64,000 bases of DNA from an uncultured cyanobacterium (GTDB taxonomy: Bacteria > Cyanobacteriota > Cyanobacteriia > PCC-9006 > JAAUQQ01). The stretch lies in assembly GCA_963718615.1 (NCBI GenBank), contig OY970368.1, forward strand, positions 4,288,001-4,352,000, read 5' to 3'. The translations under genes were made by a program, and so were the position numbers. The notes beneath the pieces were generated by a model. That model was given only the letters and a program-made list of their open reading frames with translations, was not told the origin of the DNA and did not search any database. Below are positions 2,064 to 18,903 of the stretch, piece after piece (position 1 is the first letter of the stretch; the number at the start of each line of letters is the position of its first letter).

Positions 2064-3908
2064 GTGAAAAAGCGGTGGAGAAATGTTGGGCTCTATGCCC
2101 TGTTGCTGTTAGTCGTTGTGGCTCTGCTCACCTCGTTCCTAGATACTGCGCCTCAGTCCAACAAAGAAACCTGGCGCTACAGCCAGTTTTTGCAGGCGGT
2201 TGAAAAGCAGGAGGTGGTGGGCGTTCTCATCAGCCCCAATGACAGTCGTGCCACGGTCAAAACTAAAACGGGCGACAAGGTCGAAGTCAATTTGCCCCCA
2301 GACCCCAACTTGGAATCAATGTTGGTGCGCAACGGTGTGGATCTCGCGGTGAATCCCGGTACCACCGACAACGTCTGGCTGCGGACAGCCAGCAGCTTCT
2401 TCCTGCCGTTCCTGTTGCTGGTAGGTTTGTTTTTCCTGCTGCGTCGAGCTCAAAATGGTCCCGGCAGTCAGGCGATGAACTTTGGCAAGTCTAAGGCTCG
2501 GGTCCAGATGGAGCCCCAAACCCAGGTGACCTTTGGCGATGTAGCCGGTATCGACCAAGCCAAACTGGAATTGACCGAAGTCGTGGACTTCCTCAAGAAT
2601 GCCGAGCGCTTTACGGCGGTCGGAGCCAAAATTCCCAAGGGTGTTCTGCTGGTCGGGCCTCCGGGCACCGGTAAGACGCTCCTCGCTCGGGCGGTTGCGG
2701 GGGAAGCGGGCGTGCCGTTCTTCTCGATCTCCGGTTCTGAGTTCGTCGAAATGTTTGTGGGCGTGGGCGCGTCGCGGGTCCGGGACCTGTTTGAACAAGC
2801 CAAAAACAATGCCCCCTGCATTGTCTTTATCGATGAAATTGATGCGGTGGGTCGTCAACGGGGCGCGGGCCTGGGCGGCGGCAACGATGAGCGGGAGCAA
2901 ACCCTCAACCAGTTGCTGACCGAAATGGACGGCTTTGAGGGCAATACTGGCATCATCATCATTGCGGCAACCAACCGTCCCGACGTGCTTGATTCGGCCT
3001 TGATGCGTCCCGGTCGGTTTGACCGTCAAGTCGTGGTTGATCGCCCGGACTACGCCGGTCGTCTGGAAATTCTCAATGTCCATGCTCGTGGCAAAACCCT
3101 AGCCAAGGATGTTGACCTAGAGAAAATTGCTCGCCGGACCCCTGGGTTTACGGGGGCTGATCTCTCTAACCTGCTGAATGAGGCGGCGATTTTAGCGGCC
3201 CGTCGCAATTTGACCGAAGTTTCCATGGATGAAGTCAACGATGCCATCGATCGCGTCCTGGCTGGTCCTGAGAAGAAAGACCGCGTCATGAGCGAAAAGC
3301 GCAAGCAGCTCGTTGCCTACCACGAAGCTGGTCACGCCCTAGTCGGTGCGCTGATGCCCGACTATGACCCAGTCCAGAAAATCAGCATTATTCCTCGCGG
3401 TCGTGCCGGGGGCTTGACCTGGTTCACCCCTAGCGAAGATCGCATGGAGTCTGGGCTTTACTCCCGTGCCTATTTGCGCAACCAAATGGCTGTGGCCCTA
3501 GGTGGACGCGTGGCCGAAGAGATTATCTTTGGCGAAGAGGAAGTCACAACCGGCGCATCCAATGACCTCCAGCAGGTGGCTCGGGTGGCCCGGCAGATGA
3601 TTACGCGGTTTGGCATGAGCGATCGCCTCGGTCCCGTGGCCCTAGGCCGTCAGCAAGGCAGCAGCATGTTCCTCGGTCGTGAAATCGCCGCTGAGCGAGA
3701 TTTTTCCGAAGAAACGGCATCTGCCATTGACGAAGAAGTTCGGACCCTAGTCGACCAAGCCTATGCACGCTGCAAGGATGTTCTGGTCAGCAACCGTGAC
3801 GTTTTGGATCAGCTGGCGCAAATGCTGATCGACAAAGAAACCGTGGATTCGGAAGAACTGCAAGAGTTGTTGGGCAAAAACGATGTGAAGATGGCGGCGA
3901 TCGCCTAG
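2064..3908 (+). CDS. ftsH: ATP-dependent zinc metalloprotease FtsH (FtsH3-type)
   Basis: Two TM segments, Walker A GPPGTGKT, Walker [20 protein letters not shown] and Zn motif HEAGH. The N-terminus [12 protein letters not shown] is typical of cyanobacterial FtsH3. GAGGAGG Shine-Dalgarno upstream. Confidence 0.95.
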
Positions 3909-10113: not shown

Positions 10114-12645
10114 ATGCTGGATTGTATGTATCTACCTCAAGCTCATCCTATCCCCCTAGGCCCTAGGCGTAAACTACACAGCATTTTGCTTTCAGCTCTA
10201 GGAATATCGACCCTGGTGCTGGTACTGCAACAAATGGGACTGTTTCAAAACTTGGAACAGGATTGGTTGGATCAAATGGCTCAGCTCCGCCCTGCCGAAA
10301 CCGTTGCACCGCCGATCACACTGATCACAATGACCGAAGCCGATATTGCCCAACAACAGCAGTGGCCCCTGAGCGATGCCACGCTGGCTCAATTGCTCCA
10401 ACAGATCCAACAGGCTCAACCCCGCACCATTGGCTTAAATCTCTATCGAGACATTGCCATAGAGCCCGGTTCTGAGCGTTTGCAGCAGGTCTTTCAATCA
10501 ATGCCTAACCTGATTGGGATTGAAAAACTCATTGGTAATAGTACGGGACCTGCGATCGCCCCACCCCCCCAACTCCACCAGCAACAGCAAATTGCCGCCA
10601 GCGATGTTGTCTTGGATGGCGATGGCAAAATCCGTCGCCACCTGCTCTCTTTGCGATCGCCCCAAGGCAAAACTCAACTGAGCCTGGGAGCAAGGCTAGC
10701 GGTAGACTATCTCGCCCAGCAAGGCATTGAGCAGATTCCCCTAGATCCCAAAGGCTGTACCATCCGACTGGGTCAAGCCCTGATCCAGGCCCTTAAGCCG
10801 ACCTCCGGAGGCTATGTGCGCACGGATGCTGGGGGCTATCAAATTCTGTCCAACTTTTTGCCCCAAGCCTCAATGTCTCGTCTTACGCTGAGCCAGGTGT
10901 TAGCCGGAGAAGGGACTGAGCTAATGCGCGATCGCATCGTTCTGATTGGTGCCACAGCCCCTAGTCTACAGAATCATTTTTATACCTCCAGCACCCGAAC
11001 CCCCGAGGAAGGCTGGAGCGGCCTTGAAATTCAAGCGGATTTAGCGGGGCAACTGGTGTTGGCGGCGCTGCAAGGACGGCCCCTGCTGCGAGGGTTGCCG
11101 GAGGGTTTGGAATGGGGCTGGATTTTGCTCTGGGCCGGGGTGGGGGCGATCGTGGGGGTCCAATTGCGATCGTCGAGTCGGGCGCTTTGGTTCGGGGTAC
11201 CGCTGAGTCTGCTGGGGCTTTTGGGGATTTCCTACGGGCTGTTGCTCAATGGTTGGTGGGCGATCGCGATCGCGCCAGGGTTAGCCTGCTTGGGTTCGGC
11301 CTTGATGGCTCGTCAGTTGATGCTGTGGCAACTCATTCGACAGTCGCAAGCCCAACTGGATGAATATAACCGCAGTTTTGTGACGCAATTGGCCCATGAG
11401 GTTGAGGCTCGAACTCGGCTATGGTCGCTAGAAAAACAGGATTTGGTTGAGGCCAAGGAGGCGGCTGAAACGGCTAATCAAACCAAAAGTAAATTGTTGG
11501 CGCTGATTGGTCACGAACTGCGCACGCCACTCAACTCGATTGTGGGGTATGGACAGCTCATGGCCGATGAACCGGCACTGCCGGAGCAATATCGCACCAC
11601 GGTCAACACTATTAATCACAGCAGCGAATATTTGCTCGGTCTGGTGAATGAACTATTGGACTTCTCTAAAATCGAAGCAGACCAATTGCCGCTAAATTTG
11701 AGGACAGTGCATCTTCCGAGTCTACTCAAACAATTAGAAATCCTCTTTCAGCTGCAAGCCAAACAGCGTCGCTTGCGGCTGCGTTGCTCCCTAGACAATA
11801 CGTTACCTGAATCGGTTTGGGTGGATGAAATTAAGTTGCGCCAGGTCTTGATTAATCTACTCAACAATGCTCTGAAATTTACCCAGGCCGGCCATGTGAT
11901 TTTGCGTGCCTGGGGCAATGGCAGCATGTACTTTGAAGTAGAAGATACAGGTCCCGGCATTCCCCCCGCCGAACTCAGCCAAATCTTTGAACCCTTCCAG
12001 CAGGGCCAAGCCGCTAGCCCAGCCCATAGCCGGACCGGAAACCCCCAGGGGATGGGCCTAGGACTCTGGATTACTAATTCGCTGGTCAAGTTAATGGGGG
12101 GAGAGCTGACGGTGAATAGCCAGGTAGGCCGGGGAACTAATTTTCGGGTGGTGTTGCCGCTCTATCCAGCCCCCCAGACGCCTCACCCAGAGGCCGTTCA
12201 GGACCGGGCGATCGCCTCCTCCCCCGCTGATTTTCCCCTCTATCGAGTGTTGGTTGTGGATGACGTCACCTTAAACCGCCGCCTCCTGGTGAAATTGCTC
12301 GAAGAGGTTGGGGTCGAAGTGCGGGAAGCTTGTTCTGGGGAAGAGGCGATCGCCCTGTGGCAAACCTGGCACCCTCAGTTGATTTTGATGGATATGCGCA
12401 TGCCCGGTATGGATGGCTATGAAGCGGTGCGGCAGATTCGTCTTCAAGAACCATCGGAAGCTCCGCCCGTGCCGATTTTGGCGATCACGGCCAATGTTCT
12501 GCAATCGGAGCATGAGGCGGCGCTGATGGCGGGCTGCCAAGACATGATTACGAAACCCTTCCGGCGGCAGGACGTGTTGATCAAAATTGCCAATTATTTG
12601 GACAGCCAATTGGGTGGGGTGGAAACGGACTTTCATCAGAACTAG
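10114..12645 (+). CDS. CHASE2-domain hybrid sensor histidine kinase
   Basis: CHASE2 motifs (QWPLSD, IGLNLYRD, DGKIRR), TM segments, HELRTPL, NLLNNALKFT, DTGPGI, GLGL and a C-terminal receiver MDMRMP. Confidence 0.9.
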   Translation: MLDCMYLPQAHPIPLGPRRKLHSILLSALGISTLVLVLQQMGLFQNLEQDWLDQMAQLRPAETVAPPITLITMTEADIAQQQQWPLSDATLAQLLQQIQQAQPRTIGLNLYRDIAIEPGSERLQQVFQSMPNLIGIEKLIGNSTGPAIAPPPQLHQQQQIAASDVVLDGDGKIRRHLLSLRSPQGKTQLSLGARLAVDYLAQQGIEQIPLDPKGCTIRLGQALIQALKPTSGGYVRTDAGGYQILSNFLPQASMSRLTLSQVLAGEGTELMRDRIVLIGATAPSLQNHFYTSSTRTPEEGWSGLEIQADLAGQLVLAALQGRPLLRGLPEGLEWGWILLWAGVGAIVGVQLRSSSRALWFGVPLSLLGLLGISYGLLLNGWWAIAIAPGLACLGSALMARQLMLWQLIRQSQAQLDEYNRSFVTQLAHEVEARTRLWSLEKQDLVEAKEAAETANQTKSKLLALIGHELRTPLNSIVGYGQLMADEPALPEQYRTTVNTINHSSEYLLGLVNELLDFSKIEADQLPLNLRTVHLPSLLKQLEILFQLQAKQRRLRLRCSLDNTLPESVWVDEIKLRQVLINLLNNALKFTQAGHVILRAWGNGSMYFEVEDTGPGIPPAELSQIFEPFQQGQAASPAHSRTGNPQGMGLGLWITNSLVKLMGGELTVNSQVGRGTNFRVVLPLYPAPQTPHPEAVQDRAIASSPADFPLYRVLVVDDVTLNRRLLVKLLEEVGVEVREACSGEEAIALWQTWHPQLILMDMRMPGMDGYEAVRQIRLQEPSEAPPVPILAITANVLQSEHEAALMAGCQDMITKPFRRQDVLIKIANYLDSQLGGVETDFHQN

Positions 12646-12659
12646 GCGAGTTGCGCCGG

Positions 12660-12830
12660 ATTTACCCACCGAAGCTGTTGACACTCCCCAGCCCTAAAGG
12701 GACGGGGATTCTTCTTTCATTGACGTGACTTTACCCCAATTGCCCAGAAGCAACTGACAAAGCGGTCTCATCTCCAGAAGCGTTCGGACCTACGATTCAA
12801 GTTCCCGTATCCCCTACGGTACTTAATCCC
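12660..12830 (-). ncRNA. Putative TnpB omegaRNA (reRNA) scaffold plus flank-derived guide
   Basis: Occupies the tnpB 3' end through the right-end hairpin ending in TCAA, where TnpB guide RNAs are known to be encoded. Boundaries and expression are inferred, not observed. Confidence 0.5.
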
Positions 12831-13105
12831 ACAGACAGGATGTTGAGTGCTGCATTATGGTCTCTCTCTAGCTCATAGCCACATTGACAAACATGGGTTC
12901 GAGTAGAGAGAGACTTTTTCACCATCGTCCCACAGCTTGAACAAACCTGAGAGGTGTATTGAGGCGGAACGGCAACCGTTGCCCGACCAAACACTACACC
13001 ACACCGTTCTAGCCAGACCCGGAACTGGTACCAACCGGCCTCAGAGATAGACTTCGCTAAGCAATGGTTCTTGACCATATCCTTGATTCTCAAGTCTTCG
13101 GCGAT
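12797..13105 (-). pseudogene. tnpB: tnpB 3' fragment (RuvC-II, Zn ribbon, RuvC-III)
   Basis: IAEDLRIKDMVKNHCLAKSISEAGW...TSQVCSSCG...RTHVCQCG...RDHNAALNIL. No upstream TnpB sequence in frame. Confidence 0.9.
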
Positions 13106-13355
13106 CGAGTCGTTATACGGCTGTAGAGAGCCAGTCGGGCACTACCCAGCAATGCTCCGATGTTGTGGTACAAGCCGTCTCTCCTGACAATCTCGGTTGT
13201 TTGCAGTCATTGCCCGAAAACAAGGCAACAAGTGGTGGAGCCTCGTTCCTGCATCTCTATAGGGCTCACTTCAATTTGTTACATTTTTTAACTGGGAGAG
13301 CCTTTCTAGGGCATCATTTAGACAAAGGTTTCGATTCAGGTGAACATCCTGTACC

Positions 13356-14342
13356 ATGTCCACTGCTCGTCAAGTCCTCGCTCTTTTGAAGAGCCATATA
13401 GAAGGCGAAGAACAGCAGTTTTTTACTGTTGCGATGCAGGTTGCTGCTCATGAGGCACGTCAAGGACATGGAAAAGTTGCTCAGGAAATTCGGAGTTTAG
13501 TCGATCAAGCGAAAGACCAAAGATCTCAGTTTGTCAATAAGAAAGGTGGACCAATCCCCTTAATCCAGCCGAAGGGAGATTTACTTAACCTGCTGTCTGC
13601 CCGATATTCGGATTTGCGTCTGGCAGACATGGTGCTTTCTGAGAAATTGTATGAAAGGTTGATGAGGGTTGTAACTGAACAAGCAAACTCAAACCTTCTG
13701 AAAGAGCATAATCTGAAACCTCGTCGTAAGCTGCTCTTAGTGGGAGCACCGGGAACAGGTAAATCGATGACAGCCGCAGCGATCGCTGGAGAGTTAAAGA
13801 TCCCTCTCTTTACAGTGCTGTATGAGGGACTGTTCACAAAGTTCATGGGTGAAACAGCTACTCAACTAAAGTTGATTTTTGACGCAATGTCGTCTACTCG
13901 TGGGGTTTATTTCTTTGATGAGTTTGATGCACTTGGATCGCAGCGTTCTAGCAATAACGATGTTGGTGAGATTCGACGTGTTTTAAATTCTTGTTTACAA
14001 TTTTTGGAGAATGATGATAGCGATAGTTTGATTATTGCTGCAACCAATCATCCTGACCTCTTAGACAAGGCTCTCTACAGACGCTTTGATGACGTGATTC
14101 AATACGAGCTGCCTAGCTCAGAAGTTATAAAAAAATTGATTCAATCGCGTCTTGTGGCCTTTCGATTGGACTGGAAAATTTGGGATGGCATTCTGGAAGC
14201 CGCAGCAGGTTTAAGTCAGGCTGAAATTATTCGAGCGATTACGGAAGTCGCAAAGAATACTGTTCTAGAGAGTAGGAAAACGATTTTGGAAGATGAGCTA
14301 ATTACATCAGTTGTAGAGCGTAAATTGATGACTCACTGGTAA
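13356..14342 (+). CDS. AAA-family ATPase, IetA-like partner of the adjacent S8 protease
   Basis: Walker A GAPGTGKS, Walker B FFDEFD and IAATNHPDLLDKALYRRFD. The N-terminus MQVAAHEARQGH and DVGEIRRVLNS are typical of ATPases paired with Y4bN-like proteases. Confidence 0.88.
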   Translation: MSTARQVLALLKSHIEGEEQQFFTVAMQVAAHEARQGHGKVAQEIRSLVDQAKDQRSQFVNKKGGPIPLIQPKGDLLNLLSARYSDLRLADMVLSEKLYERLMRVVTEQANSNLLKEHNLKPRRKLLLVGAPGTGKSMTAAAIAGELKIPLFTVLYEGLFTKFMGETATQLKLIFDAMSSTRGVYFFDEFDALGSQRSSNNDVGEIRRVLNSCLQFLENDDSDSLIIAATNHPDLLDKALYRRFDDVIQYELPSSEVIKKLIQSRLVAFRLDWKIWDGILEAAAGLSQAEIIRAITEVAKNTVLESRKTILEDELITSVVERKLMTHW

Positions 14343-14389
14343 ATGAGCTTATTGCTTAGAGTTGAAAAACCCATCTTTTCCTTTAATGT

Positions 14390-17005
14390 ATGTCCGAATC
14401 GCTGCGTAACTTACCCCATCTGAGTCTTCCTCATCATCCCTCTATTACAAGTCGGCAAGATTATACATATCCCAAGAAGGTAGTTGATAAACGTCCTAAC
14501 CCTGTACGAAATCGGGGAAGTCATTCTAGTAAACTTCGTTCTGATTTGGGTAATGTTTTGGCGGCTTTGGAACAGGAAAGGCAGTCATCTGAGTCCGAAG
14601 TAGATGCAGTGGGTGAACCTGGATTTTATTTAGATGTGGAGTTTAGCGCTTCTGAAAAGGACAAGATACTTCAAAGCTTAGAAAATCTTGGCTCTAAGAT
14701 TGAATTAATGTCAGTCACTGCTTCTCTGAAATTGGACATAAATTGTTATATAGTCCTAAAAATTGCGCTGTTTCTCATAGCTGATGAGGAATCTATAAGC
14801 CAAGAAAAACTATCACTCTTGACTTTGCTTCTGATTAGTCTGAAACGGCCCTACCTGGAAGCGACGCTGTTTGTTCCTGACACTAAGAAAAACTATTTTA
14901 AGGAAAAAATCACTACCTATGAACATGAGGAAACAAAAAAGGGTAAACCGAAGCATGAAGCTCTAGTTAGCCGCATAGAAGCCTTTTCCTTAGGCTTTAT
15001 TACTTCACTGTTTACCGATGAGAAGTCACTGTTTCCACAGGAGCAAAGTGTGGCGGTTTGGTGGGAGATATGGTTGAGAGGCGATCGAAAGGAGAATTTT
15101 GATACGATCTCTGAACGGCTGAATATTCGGGTTCAACCCCATTCCGTTAAATTTGTTGAACGTGAAGTGGTTTTAGCGCTGGCTAATGTTGTTCAGCTTG
15201 GACAAATTATCCGTAAGTGTGATGCGATCGCAGAACTCAGAATTGCGAAGGATCTACCATCGTTCTTTTTTGAGAATAATGAGCTTGAGCAACAGGCATG
15301 GATGAATGATTTATTGAATAGATGCGTATTTGAGCAATCTCCGAATGTCTCTGTATGTTTGTTGGATGGTGGTGTGATGAGAGTTCATCCATTGCTAGAA
15401 CATAGCCTTAACGTGGATGATATGCATAGCTATGAGCCAGCATGGGAGACTCACGATACTAGTGAAGGACATGGCACGAATATGTCTGGACTATTGATCT
15501 ATGGGGAACTATGTGAAGCTCTGGTTGGGTATCAAAAAATCGAGATTTCGCATTGCCTAGAATCAGTAAAAATACTTCCTCCTCAAGGAGAAAATGATCC
15601 TGCGCTGTATGGGTGGATCATGCAGGAAGGGATTAGCCGCGCTGAGATACAAGCTCCATGCCGAACACGGGTGATTTGTATGCCAGTAACCAGTGAGGGT
15701 TCAAATCGAGGGACGCCTTCCTCTTGGTCTGCGGCAATCGATAATATGTGCTTTGGTCGAGATAAAATCTCTGATGAATTGGTGCAAAGGTTAATAATTT
15801 TGCCAGTTGGTAATATTCGTGATGAGATCAATCGTGGGGATTATATTGCCAATAACGATAGTGCATCTGCTGAGAATCCGGCACAGTCTTGGAATGCGTT
15901 GGTCGTTGGGGCTTTTACCGAGAAGGTAAATATAGTTGATTCTAAATATCTCCATTGGCAGCCGATCGCGCCTGCTGGTGATTTATCACCTCGAAGTAGA
16001 ACGTCTTGTATCTGGGGCCGACAATGGCCTAATCGCCCGGATATCGTATTTGAAGGGGGAAATCTTGCGACGGATGGAGTTTGTGCGGGTGGGGTTTTGG
16101 ATGATTTGAGTTTGTTGACGGTTCATCACAAAGTTGGTCAGCGACTCTTTACGCTATTTAGTGATACCAGTGCAGCGACTGCTTTAGCGGGATATTTTGC
16201 AGCACAGATTCTGGTTCAAAATCCTGATTTTTGGCCGGAGACGGTGCGAGCTTTGATTGTTCACTCAGCGACTTGGACAGCGGCGATGCGAAAGTATTTT
16301 CTTGCTACACCACCACAGCAAAAGGACAAAAATATTCTGCTCAGGCGTTATGGATATGGTGTACCGAGTTTAGAAAAGGCACTTCGGAGTGCGAAGAATG
16401 ATTTGACAATGATTGTTGAAGATGGATTTCAGCCCTTTCAGAAGAAGGAAAATCAGTCCAAGGTGACAACTAAGGATATGAATCTTCATACCCTTCCCTG
16501 GCCGAAAAAGGAACTGGAATCTCTGGCTGAGAGGGATGTTGAGATGAGGGTGACACTTTCGTACTTTATCGAGTCGAATCCAGGAGAACGAGGTTGGGTT
16601 CGCCGCTATTCCTATCCTTCCTATGGGCTAAGATTTGCCACTAAAGATGCAACTGAGACACTTACAGATTTCAAGAAACGGATTACTAAGAATGCCCATG
16701 AGGAAGGGGATACAGTTTCTTTTAAAGAGGATAAAGGTTGGTTTTTAGGTACCGAATTGCGTAATAGAGGTTCCTTACATTCGGATATTTGGACGGGAAC
16801 TGCTGCTGATTTAGCTGCCAAGGATGCGATCGGTGTTTATCCAGTGGGAGGATGGTGGAAAGAGCGCCTTATACATAATCGATGGGACGAGCAGATTAGG
16901 TATGCGCTTATTGTTTCGATTCGGGTAACAGGGGAAGGGGCTGATATTTATACACCTGTTGAAACTTTGGTGAGGCAAACGCTGGCGATCGAGATTGAAA
17001 CTTAA
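14390..17005 (+). CDS. S8 family peptidase, Y4bN/IetS-like
   Basis: WWEIWLR; catalytic Asp LLDGGV, His GHGTNM and Ser DTSAAT; WPETVRALIVHSA, YGYGVP, VTLSYFIE, RGSLHSDIW and YPVGGWWK. Starts 47 bp downstream of the ATPase. Confidence 0.88.
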   Translation: MSESLRNLPHLSLPHHPSITSRQDYTYPKKVVDKRPNPVRNRGSHSSKLRSDLGNVLAALEQERQSSESEVDAVGEPGFYLDVEFSASEKDKILQSLENLGSKIELMSVTASLKLDINCYIVLKIALFLIADEESISQEKLSLLTLLLISLKRPYLEATLFVPDTKKNYFKEKITTYEHEETKKGKPKHEALVSRIEAFSLGFITSLFTDEKSLFPQEQSVAVWWEIWLRGDRKENFDTISERLNIRVQPHSVKFVEREVVLALANVVQLGQIIRKCDAIAELRIAKDLPSFFFENNELEQQAWMNDLLNRCVFEQSPNVSVCLLDGGVMRVHPLLEHSLNVDDMHSYEPAWETHDTSEGHGTNMSGLLIYGELCEALVGYQKIEISHCLESVKILPPQGENDPALYGWIMQEGISRAEIQAPCRTRVICMPVTSEGSNRGTPSSWSAAIDNMCFGRDKISDELVQRLIILPVGNIRDEINRGDYIANNDSASAENPAQSWNALVVGAFTEKVNIVDSKYLHWQPIAPAGDLSPRSRTSCIWGRQWPNRPDIVFEGGNLATDGVCAGGVLDDLSLLTVHHKVGQRLFTLFSDTSAATALAGYFAAQILVQNPDFWPETVRALIVHSATWTAAMRKYFLATPPQQKDKNILLRRYGYGVPSLEKALRSAKNDLTMIVEDGFQPFQKKENQSKVTTKDMNLHTLPWPKKELESLAERDVEMRVTLSYFIESNPGERGWVRRYSYPSYGLRFATKDATETLTDFKKRITKNAHEEGDTVSFKEDKGWFLGTELRNRGSLHSDIWTGTAADLAAKDAIGVYPVGGWWKERLIHNRWDEQIRYALIVSIRVTGEGADIYTPVETLVRQTLAIEIET

Positions 17006-17027
17006 GTGCCAGAGAGTAGATAGGCGA

Positions 17028-17093
17028 TATGGCTTCGTCAATCGCAGACAATTGCTGAATATTGGTTCTGGCTTTGAATTCTAGGACAAGCAT
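17028..17093 (-). pseudogene. tnpB: tnpB 5' fragment (first ~22 codons)
   Basis: MLVLEFKARTNIQQLSAIDEAI matches the typical N-terminus of cyanobacterial IS605-family TnpB. Similarity stops abruptly at the cargo junction. Confidence 0.75.
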
Positions 17094-17247
17094 CTATTTG
17101 TTCTAGCACGTTTATCATCAAACATATTGAGGAGAGCTATGTATGGACATTGCTCCCTTTTCGTTGCACGGATTATATCCCCATTCTTGAAAGCAGGGGT
17201 CTTACGCCGATTTCTGATAAAATCGCAGGACAATTCCTCGGGTATGG

Positions 17248-18903
17248 GTGGAGGGTGAAAGCATGTATTGGCGAAGATTTTCAACAGGGTCGCGGGGCTG
17301 GATGGGCCGCTTTGCAGGGGTCGTCATTTTGTGCGCCATGCTGGTGGTGGGGTGTCAAAGTCCCAATCCTCAGTCGGGTGCGCCTGGGGCGGGGGGAAAT
17401 TCCAGCGGAAATCCCAATCGAATTACCCTGGGAACCACTGCCAAGGTGCGGACGCTAGATCCAGCCGATTCCTACGAGATTTTGTCAGGGAATTTGCTCT
17501 ACAACTTGGGCGATCGCCTCTACACAACCGAACCCAACCAAACCACTCTAGTGCCTCAGTTGGCCACAGCGCTGCCCCAGATTAGCGAGGATGGCTTGAC
17601 CTACACCATTCCCCTGCGCGAGGGCGTGGTGTTTCATGACGGCACCCCGTTTAATGCCGAGGCCATGGCCTTTTCACTCAACCGCTTCATCCAAAATGGG
17701 GGGGACCCGGCGTCGTTGCTGGGGAATTTAGTGAACTCTGTTAATGCCACTAGCCCTACCGAATTGACCATTCAACTCAAGGCTCCCTTTGCGGCATTTC
17801 CTTCAATCTTGGCGTTTCCCGGTCTTTGCGCAGTGTCGCCCCAGTCCTACGAAATAGGTGCAGGCAAGTTCAAACCCCAGGAATTTGTCGGGACTGGACC
17901 GTACAAATTGGCGCAGTACGGTAACGACTCGATTAGGCTGGATACGAATCCGGATTATTGGGGTGAAAAACCGGCCAATGAAGGGGTTGATATTCAGATT
18001 TTTGCCAGTTCTTCCAATCTGTTCAATGCGGCTAAAACCGGTGCGGTGGATGCGGCCTACCAAAGTCTTGACCCCAATCAGGTCAAAAGTCTTCAGGAAA
18101 ACGCAGCACTGCAAACCGTTGAAAGCGAGGGCTTAGGAATTCACTATTTGAGTGTGAATGTGCGGAGTGCACCGCTGGATAAACCGGAAGTTCGGCAGGC
18201 GCTGGCGCTGTTGATTGACCGAAAATTGCTGAGCGATCGCGTGTTCCAAGGTCAGGTAGAACCGCTCTATAGTTTAGTTCCAGCCAGCGTCGAGGGTTCC
18301 AAGCCCGTGTTTGAAGCAGGGGATGGCGATGCCGATGCCGCGAAAGCCTTGCTGGAAAAAGCGGGATTTTCTGAGGCGAATCCCCTGCAACTTGACTTCT
18401 GGTATCGGTCTAATTTATCGAGTAATGTGCAAGCTGCGAATACGATTAAGGCGATCGCCGATCAAAAGCTACCGGGTTTAGTTCAGCTCAAACTTCAAGG
18501 GGTTGAATCCGCAACGGCCTATGAAAACCTAGACAAAGGAGCCTACCCTATTTTTATGCTGGACTGGACGCCAGACTACCTGGATGCCGATAGCTATTTG
18601 CAGCCCTTTATGGCCTGTGAAGAAGGCTCTGCGGCAGCAGGCTGTCAATCGGGTGAAAGTGCCTATCAAGGGTCGTTCTATTACAACGATCGGGTGAATC
18701 AACTGATTGCTCAAGAGCGCACGCTCACCGATGCCGCAGCGCGGGATAAAATCCTAATAGAACTACAGGATATCCTGGCCAAGGATGTGCCGTTTATTCC
18801 CCTGTGGAATAGCAAGGACTATCTGTTTGTCCAAAAGAATGTGCAAGGTGCAGCAATTTTACCAACTTCTCAAATTCCCTTTAAGGCCCTAAAAAAAGGG
18901 TAG
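17248..18903 (+). CDS. Peptide/nickel ABC transporter substrate-binding lipoprotein (family 5, DppA/OppA-like); start may be ATG 17263
   Basis: Lipobox LVVGC, plus TLDPA, FHDGTPFNAEA, GTGPY and VRQAL. Confidence 0.9.
   Translation: MEGESMYWRRFSTGSRGWMGRFAGVVILCAMLVVGCQSPNPQSGAPGAGGNSSGNPNRITLGTTAKVRTLDPADSYEILSGNLLYNLGDRLYTTEPNQTTLVPQLATALPQISEDGLTYTIPLREGVVFHDGTPFNAEAMAFSLNRFIQNGGDPASLLGNLVNSVNATSPTELTIQLKAPFAAFPSILAFPGLCAVSPQSYEIGAGKFKPQEFVGTGPYKLAQYGNDSIRLDTNPDYWGEKPANEGVDIQIFASSSNLFNAAKTGAVDAAYQSLDPNQVKSLQENAALQTVESEGLGIHYLSVNVRSAPLDKPEVRQALALLIDRKLLSDRVFQGQVEPLYSLVPASVEGSKPVFEAGDGDADAAKALLEKAGFSEANPLQLDFWYRSNLSSNVQAANTIKAIADQKLPGLVQLKLQGVESATAYENLDKGAYPIFMLDWTPDYLDADSYLQPFMACEEGSAAAGCQSGESAYQGSFYYNDRVNQLIAQERTLTDAAARDKILIELQDILAKDVPFIPLWNSKDYLFVQKNVQGAAILPTSQIPFKALKKG

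Follow-up and report, generated by a model that had tools for sequence, protein, structure and literature searches.

We report here that positions 12678 to 17216 of a 64,000-nucleotide stretch of DNA from an uncultured cyanobacterium (contig OY970368.1 of assembly GCA_963718615.1, positions 4,288,001 to 4,352,000; this whole stretch is hereafter called the window) form a single insertion sequence (IS) of the IS200/IS605 family, in which the middle of the transposon gene tnpB is swapped for a module encoding the ATPase IetA and the protease IetS. The window belongs to a 6.1-Mb genome assembled as one contig (G000). The location of ietAS inside an IS605-type element is a real and rare arrangement. 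A preliminary description, made from the letters of the window, had listed the parts of this element; all of them were recovered at, or a few bases from, the places given there, and each is now backed by sequence comparison. We found no sign that the whole package was ever mobile as one unit, and the reading that we consider most likely, with a probability of about 0.6, is the capture of the ietAS cassette in situ by an IS that is now stranded.

The limits of the element are given by an empty site. In two genomes of the sister genus (G001 and G003), the spacer between the host genes that flank the element reads ..AACCTG/ATAAAATCGCAGGAC.., the slash marking the place where 12677 is joined to 17217, and the window reads ..GAAGCTG, then 12678-17216, then ATAAAATCGCAGGAC.. 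On the top strand of the element, which is the minus strand of the window, the empty sites read TTTTAT/CAGGTT in both relatives, and the window TTTTAT, the element, then CAGCTT. Thus, 12678-17216 is one insertion 3' of TTAT, without target duplication, and these relatives are devoid of ietAS at this locus. This is the junction that the preliminary description had proposed to look for in related strains, and it also removes the reading of two independent degraded IS insertions bracketing an ietAS island. The window genome holds other solitary end fragments of the same lineage, as that reading would have it. Nevertheless, the outer flanks are contiguous in G001 and G003 up to the TTAT/CAG join, which separate insertions would not have left, the parts are ordered and oriented as in one element, homology to the cassette extends from one tnpB breakpoint to the other, and both tnpB remnants fit the same TnpB best. 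The empty site brings this reading close to refutation, and we regard it as very improbable.

An intact IS of the parent type was found in a related genome (G003, contig C93, locus L010). It measures 1.74 kb and is ordered as right end, tnpB (401 aa; OrfB_IS605 and TNB domains), a 12-bp spacer, a divergent tnpA (2735-3166, 432 bp, 143 aa; Y1_Tnp at 7e-44) and left end. The window matches the DNA of L010 in three blocks: 12678-13118 (87% over 444 aligned columns; right end and tnpB from codon 262 to its end), 17029-17093 (85% over 65 nt, E 1.3e-15; tnpB codons 1-22) and 17149-17222 (78%; left end). The alignment of the first block passes through the right end and stops exactly at 12678. At the protein level (tblastn), residues 262-389 of the L010 TnpB are 85% identical to the 3' remnant of the window, and its N-terminus shares 19 of 22 residues with the 5' remnant (86%, E 4.7e-7 against a 6-kb region). 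We then compared both remnants with 113 full-length TnpBs, namely 111 from a protein collection and those of L010 and of genome G083. L010 ranked first for the N-terminal remnant (19/22 residues) and tied with a collection protein, P0001, as the best for the C-terminal one (91/105 residues). The N- and C-remnant scores over all 113 proteins are otherwise uncorrelated (Spearman 0.12), so that the shared top match is informative, although drawn from a single clade. The two remnants and the two ends thus point, as had been proposed, to one and the same IS lineage rather than to two independent remnants. The closest full-length TnpB in a collection of 5.8 billion protein clusters is the L010-like P0001, and since this best match reaches just 86% identity, the sublineage of the window has no intact representative on record. 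The lineage is present in several cyanobacterial genera.

What is left of tnpB is a 3' part and the first 22 codons. Codons 23-261 (714 bp) are absent and replaced by the cassette; the core is indeed missing rather than displaced. The OrfB_IS605 domain (residues 163-278 of the parent) is almost entirely gone and no intact TnpB remains. The 3' remnant matches Pfam PF07282 (Cas12f1-like_TNB) at 1.7e-19 and, relative to the parent, is cut short by a stop codon at 12797-12799, with a change of frame further 3'. Compared with L010, its ratio of nonsynonymous to synonymous substitutions (dN/dS) is 0.11 at a dS of 0.62. The coordinates of all parts are collected in Table 1.

Table 1. Parts of the element and of its host flanks, with positions in the window.
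Feature	Position	Strand	Basis or content
Hybrid histidine kinase gene (host flank)	10114-12645	+	Orthologues at 45-53% identity in 7/7 family genomes
Right end	12678-12796	-	Start of homology in three other copies; single-stranded DNA fold
Parts of the right end	TCAA 12678-12681; hairpin core 12686-12707; GAAT 12708-12711 (plus-strand coordinates)		GTG spacer between TCAA and hairpin
tnpB 3' remnant	12797-13118	-	Codons about 262-366 of the 401-codon parent: RuvC-II Glu region, zinc ribbon/TNB, RuvC-III region
Junction 1	13113-13118	.	TTATAC in the window and L046, TTAGAC in tnpB copies (L010, metagenome); pairwise alignments
ietA upstream region (presumed promoter region)	13119-13355	+	Homologous to L046 from 13113, to other loci from about 13266-13275
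ietA (AAA+ ATPase, 328 aa)	13356-14342	+	PADLOC IetA PDLC02196 6.2e-71 (aa 2-323); Pfam AAA 1.6e-28
ietS (S8 subtilase-family protease, 871 aa)	14390-17005	+	PADLOC IetS PDLC02198 6.8e-26 (aa 320-863)
Junction 2	17025-17028	.	Cassette homology to 17024; tnpB homology from 17028/17029
tnpB 5' remnant	17028-17093	-	Codons 1-22 (MLVLEFKARTNIQQLSAIDEAI)
Scar of deleted tnpA	17094-17148	.	55 bp against the parent's 12-bp spacer and 432-bp divergent tnpA
Left end	17149-17216	-	Hairpin 17179-17199; guide AAGA 17200-17203 (plus-strand coordinates); terminus 17216
Target/cleavage tetranucleotide TTAT	17217-17220	-	Outside the element; top strand
Peptide ABC-transporter substrate-binding protein gene (host flank)	17248-18903	+	Adjoins the kinase gene in G001 and G003

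The ends of the element were examined in the same way. Homology of the right end with three other copies (G000:799777, G003:C93 and G003:C144) begins at exactly 12678 in each, with 95% identity to the copy on G003:C144 over 12678-12820. On the top strand this end reads GAAT, a hairpin, GTG and TCAA. The hairpin folds well as single-stranded DNA (ssDNA); an extra T-A pair is possible at its foot, and the guide tetranucleotide would then shift to AGAA. Beyond the hairpin, the right end overlaps the 3' end of tnpB in the parent, where it would house the omega-RNA scaffold; a scan of 12400-17500 against Rfam (E<=1) gave 0 matches, so that no curated omega-RNA family can be named. At the left end, four copies (window, L010, G003:C184 and G000:4259917-4259979) align up to 17216 and diverge from 17217 on. 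The flank is TTAC in three of them and TTAT in the window; these three also have AAAG 5' of the hairpin, where the window has AAGA. A fifth copy of this end, on the tnpA-less G083:C156, combines TTAC with AAAG. Given the pairing of guide and target in IS608, the change of G to A in the guide together with that of C to T in the target is what resetting predicts. The left-end hairpin CCCC..GGGG is kept in all copies compared (the four aligned and that of G083). The window retains the CCCCT/A(T)GGGG stem with one mismatch more than L010; it is a weak stem, and another structure is preferred to that hairpin in the minimum-energy fold. Terminal inverted repeats are absent and subterminal hairpins stand at both ends. 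These comparisons indicate that IS608-like guide and cleavage tetranucleotides are present (GAAT with TCAA, AAGA with TTAT), as the preliminary description had read from the ends, and that they covary with the target. The ends are structurally intact.

Concerning the transposase, a tblastn search of 12000-18000 gave no similarity to TnpA. The preliminary description had noted this absence correctly, and it had overlooked a second deletion, since a divergent tnpA belongs to the parent type. In the scar left in its place, the last ~40 nt weakly resemble the 3' end of tnpA. With tnpA reduced to 55 bp, the copy is non-autonomous independently of the cargo event; encoding no TnpA, it is at best a non-autonomous element. 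The copy on G083:C156 has the same left end and also lacks tnpA, and its spacer between left end and tnpB is not homologous to that of the window. In the whole window genome, nine Y1_Tnp matches were detected, at most 38.8% identical to the cognate-type TnpA; seven are strong, of which six belong to a resident 1785-bp IS and the seventh, at G000:693041, is just 35% identical to the cognate type. No cognate TnpA was found in this genome, and the IS carrying the best match has different hairpins.

The resident 1785-bp IS has an IS605 layout and is present in six near-identical copies (at 714k, 1612k, 3022k, 3064k, 4040k and 4882k); it is probably active. Its flank is (C)TAC, its left end starts with CAGAAATC and its right end finishes in GCGTCAA. 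The TCAA end and the CAGAAATC start are shared with the element of the window; the hairpins are longer and different. A further stand-alone tnpB of the resident type lies at 771063-772169. The cumulative GC skew of the 6.1-Mb genome is noisy; with its extremes taken as origin and terminus, three of the six resident copies have the expected lagging-template orientation.

The preliminary description had suggested searching the whole genome for intact parent copies and a tnpA. A search of this genome gave neither an intact parent nor a second composite: other copies of the lineage are fragments only (799777-800341, 3245504-3245631 and 4259917-4259979), and the intact copy stands in G003. The first fragment is part of G000:C1:799777-801642, a right end followed by tnpB codons 222-401 whose protein is 97% identical to the G003 copy; it is interrupted at ~800368 by a 425-aa transposase-like open reading frame (ORF) of another IS (DDE-type, judged by eye). 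The second is a solitary 128-bp right-end piece and the third a solitary left-end piece, neither with a partner end nearby. The surroundings of the third are unremarkable, and it has in common with G003:C184 ~50 nt resembling the 3' end of tnpA. In G003 itself, the intact IS on C93 is located ~360 bp downstream of cas2 (L010 1-1139); the nearby cas1 is read as two overlapping ORFs and may be frameshifted.

The cargo consists of two co-oriented genes separated by 47 bp. IetA displays a Walker A (GAPGTGKS) and a Walker B (DEFD) motif. IetS matches Pfam Peptidase_S8 (2.5e-55) over residues 319-657, preceded by an N-terminal domain without Pfam family, and its translation shows the contexts of the Asp, His and Ser residues. 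Together with the PADLOC profiles, these features identify an IetAS-type pair, as had been suggested. Both genes are intact, with dN/dS of 0.09-0.14 for ietA (two relatives) and 0.19-0.20 for ietS, values that point to purifying selection on both. Positions 14727-14855 of ietS (129 nt) hold an in-frame stretch of 37 codons, present in two of the related metagenome contigs (L048 and L049) and absent from three other loci (L045, L046 and L047), where 18 nt stand instead. We considered this stretch as a miniature inverted-repeat transposable element and rejected it, for no other copy exists in the window genome; its presence in L048 and L049 marks it as an indel polymorphism within the family and not a repeat of this genome. 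Judging from its genes, ietAS most likely works as an ordinary chromosomal IetAS module, in abortive anti-phage defence or in toxin-antitoxin-like addiction.

The cassette, of ~3.9 kb, is poor in GC (0.40-0.46 across 13500-16800 against 0.49-0.58 in the flanks) and fills the interval between both tnpB breakpoints. No ietAS DNA was found in 40 relatives, and IetS occurs in 10 of 401 genomes of the class, G000 included. The closest DNA comes from a contig of a Synechococcales metagenome-assembled genome (G112, locus L045; 88-89% over 13266-17007), from an Almyronema contig (L046; 86-90% over the entire insert, 13113-17024) and from metagenome contigs (L047-L050; 85-93% over about 13274-17016). 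The ietAS genes of cyanobacteria from other families reach 86-93% DNA identity; with the low GC and the lack of ietAS DNA in relatives, this shows a foreign, horizontally acquired origin of the cassette. Junction 1 reads GTCGTTATACGGCTG in the window, GTCGTTAGAC in tnpB copies and TTATACGGCTG in L046, with a microhomology of 5-6 bp; metagenome contigs have loose ends at 13100. Past junction 2, where the window departs from them, L046 and L047 still match each other over 46 bp, so that this breakpoint is not a natural end of the cassette. A discrete mobile ietAS cassette with ends of its own was also considered and rejected, the boundaries of homology differing among loci. The junctions rather resemble products of illegitimate recombination, with a donor-like locus cut at arbitrary points.

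We searched for further copies of the composite. None was found in G000, in the 40 relatives, in 400 further genomes of the class or in the genome-contig and metagenome-contig collections. The composite was likewise absent from the 9 other class genomes with IetS, from 2 loci of the genome-contig collection and from 6 metagenome loci. Neither TnpA nor TnpB was detected beside ietAS at any of 17 other loci (10 + 1 + 6), many of them with short flanks. Four metagenome runs were compared, the best share of window words in any run being 0.11; no contig in them bridged 13100-13274 or 17016-17052, and uncovered parts prove nothing. In these runs, IS-like contigs continue as intact tnpB, and ietAS-like contigs continue into non-IS flanks. 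One run, the soil metagenome X2, contains four contigs of 151-204 nt within window positions 14186-16050, with 0-1 differences from ietAS at a depth of about 2, which is too thin for placing them; it also contains an L010-type right end in a different flank. The 61-aa chimeric junction ORF gave no match in the collection of 5.8 billion clusters, such ORFs being rarely called. A class-wide DNA search with the intact IS gave matches in 99 of 401 genomes, among them the tnpA-less copy of G083, ends being undetectable at 64-73% identity.

According to the reading that we favor, an IS of IS605 layout (left end, divergent tnpA, tnpB, right end) would have been transposed by the single-strand mechanism of Y1-TnpA and would have landed 3' of TTAT in the spacer that separates the kinase gene from the binding-protein gene, tnpA being lost later by deletion. 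The 3.9-kb ietA-ietS cassette would have replaced tnpB codons 23-261 by illegitimate recombination at the level of microhomology, from a donor locus like the Almyronema contig L046, cut at two arbitrary breakpoints, and ietAS would have brought its own upstream region. The element would now be stranded, its lineage existing as mere fragments in the window genome and no cognate transposase being left. The IS would thus be a harmless landing pad and not a proven vehicle. In this account, the comparisons show the anatomy of the element, its single lineage, the empty site, the foreign origin of the cassette and the integrity of both genes, whereas the succession of events, the mode of recombination, the immobility at present and a defence activity are inferred.

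Several points weigh against this scenario. A consensus scan gave no sigma-70 site in the region preceding ietA, its counts being no higher than in shuffled sequences, and a defence activity of ietAS is predicted from the genes. The order of events may also have been another, the cassette being already inside when the IS inserted. Both ends keep their hairpins, guide tetranucleotides and matching flank, as in a mobilisable element. Also, the low dN/dS of the tnpB remnant (0.11) shows little neutral decay and thus an inactivation that is recent relative to the split from L010; a cognate TnpA may still have existed at the time the composite was formed. Finally, the negative searches are weak, as many ietAS loci are known with a flank of just 0.3-1.5 kb or lie at a contig end, the genomes compared include none from the same genus, and the class-wide IS search, in which only two candidates were scored per genome, neither shows nor excludes cargo-bearing copies.

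A possible but clearly less probable explanation is that of a working non-autonomous cargo transposon, in which left end, ietAS and right end would have been assembled earlier, moved as ssDNA by TnpA in trans and inserted here as a unit. The retargeted left-end guide AAGA would then have chosen TTAT, IetAS would take over the retention role of TnpB by penalising loss of the element, and the whole could move again once a cognate Y1 TnpA enters the cell. In line with this explanation, the ends are intact and the guide and target match this very site; tnpA-less derivatives with the same left end exist (G083:C156), so that mobilisation in trans would be normal for the lineage; and the same-lineage remnants in the window genome show that the cognate TnpA was once there. 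Furthermore, the tnpB remnant is almost free of neutral decay (at most ~0.02-0.03 neutral substitutions per site, a rough estimate), both ends are far better conserved than synonymous sites, and the sublineage of the window has no other copy in its genome, which fits an arrival in an already defective state. Rare cargo genes in IS200/IS605-family elements have also been reported (PMC10691335). Nevertheless, the composite is a single copy, with a second instance in no collection searched, the cognate TnpA is now absent, and the left-end hairpin of the window is the most diverged of the five copies of this end (counted by eye). Excision of IS608 drops steeply with length, and for a mechanism in which the two ends must be single-stranded simultaneously, this is a long element. 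Its 4.5 kb compare with single-stranded gaps of about 1.5-2 kb at the replication fork (PMC5027513). Thus, the proposal of the preliminary description that the IS was converted into a vehicle is unsupported, in view of the single copy, of the 0/17 other ietAS loci with TnpA or TnpB beside them, of the missing cognate TnpA, of the arbitrary junctions and of the length.

Homologous recombination offers another route, which we hold to be unlikely. A composite from another genome or a plasmid would have replaced the interior of a resident cargo-free IS through the IS arms, the IS serving as portable homology rather than as a transposon. IS sequence is indeed available on both sides of the cargo (about 440 bp on the side of the right end and about 190 bp on that of the left end), the lineage occurs in several cyanobacterial genera, and the four short soil-metagenome contigs of X2 are about 100% identical to ietAS. 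On the other hand, the arm on the left-end side is short and a donor composite was not found in the collections searched. The same rare composite must also have formed elsewhere first, which merely moves the question. We thus retain the capture of ietAS in situ as the most likely reading, and any explanation beyond those considered here is very improbable.

The insertion concerns a spacer between two host genes. In G001 and G003, the kinase gene is followed directly by partial orthologues of the binding-protein gene (79% and 71% identity); in the remaining five genomes of the family, none was found within the 1.5-kb flank of the kinase gene. Upstream of the binding-protein gene, an 18-nt motif (CTGATAAAATCGCAGGAC, window 17214-17231) is conserved across three genera (L057 of G001, L059 of G003) and could serve the transporter gene as promoter or operator. 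The IS sits inside this motif, after CTG, and the motif is rebuilt because the last three bases of the left end happen to be CTG on the plus strand. The empty-site spacer of G003 (C195, L059) contains a 14-nt unit, GGTCTGTGATTTTC, five times in tandem, which is absent from G001 and from the window. A consensus scan of the plus strand between the ietS stop and the binding-protein gene (17006-17247) found no terminator-like site, so that transcription of ietAS may read through the left end into the host gene.

Each part of this construct is known, both the element of IS605 layout with its IS608-type guides and the IetAS pair; a description of their arrangement was not found in the literature searched. 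As in IS608 and IS605 of Helicobacter pylori, which are moved by a Y1 HUH TnpA ("peel and paste"), the hairpins are subterminal and imperfect, terminal inverted repeats and target duplication are lacking and the insertion is 3' of a tetranucleotide. Divergent tnpA and tnpB genes are the layout of IS605 itself, and this layout is shared by the parent copy L010. The tetranucleotides of IS608 (PMC5934647) are TTAC (left cleavage site, CL), AAAG (left guide, GL), TCAA (right cleavage site, CR) and GAAT (right guide, GR); GL and CL of the parent type and GR and CR of the window are identical to them. In contrast, the window copy has AAGA/TTAT as GL/CL, lacks tnpA, keeps just 22 and ~105 codons of tnpB and carries 3.9 kb of unrelated genes, which brings it to 4.5 kb against the ~1.7 kb of the parent.

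The IS200/IS605 family also comprises reduced forms, stand-alone tnpB elements being of the IS1341 type and end-only elements being PATE-like. Such tnpA-less derivatives keep both ends and need TnpA in trans, as the element of the window would; they contain tnpB or nothing, whereas in the window a defence operon takes the position of the tnpB core. Altae-Tran et al. (2023, PMC10691335) state that cargo had not been known before in IS200 and IS605, and they report rare cases. These cases resemble ours in having extra genes inside TnpB-associated transposons, but the cargo (a helix-turn-helix protein, an RNA helicase, a WhiA-like protein) stands beside TnpB, and the passage on them mentions neither a defence system nor a replacement of tnpB. 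In the literature searched, including PMC10691335, 10.1101/2023.11.20.567912, PMC5934647 and PMC5027513, we met with no IS200/IS605 element that had a defence system as cargo.

The comparison may be extended to the cargo and to larger transposons. IetAS is reportedly a stability or toxin-antitoxin module of the plasmid pTiC58 and is said to be one of the anti-phage systems of Gao-2020. The pair described here shares with it the two co-oriented genes and the match to both profiles; unlike it, the pair is chromosomal, lies in a cyanobacterium and inside an IS, and its activity is predicted from its genes. Tn7-like and similar defence-carrying transposons are large DDE/AAA+ elements with dedicated cargo regions and many independent examples. 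They too place a defence module between transposon ends, whereas the element of the window is a minimal ssDNA IS, a single example, whose mobility is unproven.

IS200/IS605 elements are regarded as minimal. If the element were a true cargo transposon, the RNA-guided retention nuclease TnpB would have been swapped for an addiction-type module penalising loss. The construct thus raises the questions whether immunity genes are open to dissemination by Y1 transposition through ssDNA and whether the retention role of TnpB can pass to an addiction module. It also provides a natural example of the IS608 rule of guide and target covariation in a cyanobacterial IS. On the more conservative reading, a small IS would have placed neutral DNA in a conserved spacer of the core genome, and would thereby have offered a landing pad for an acquired defence cassette.

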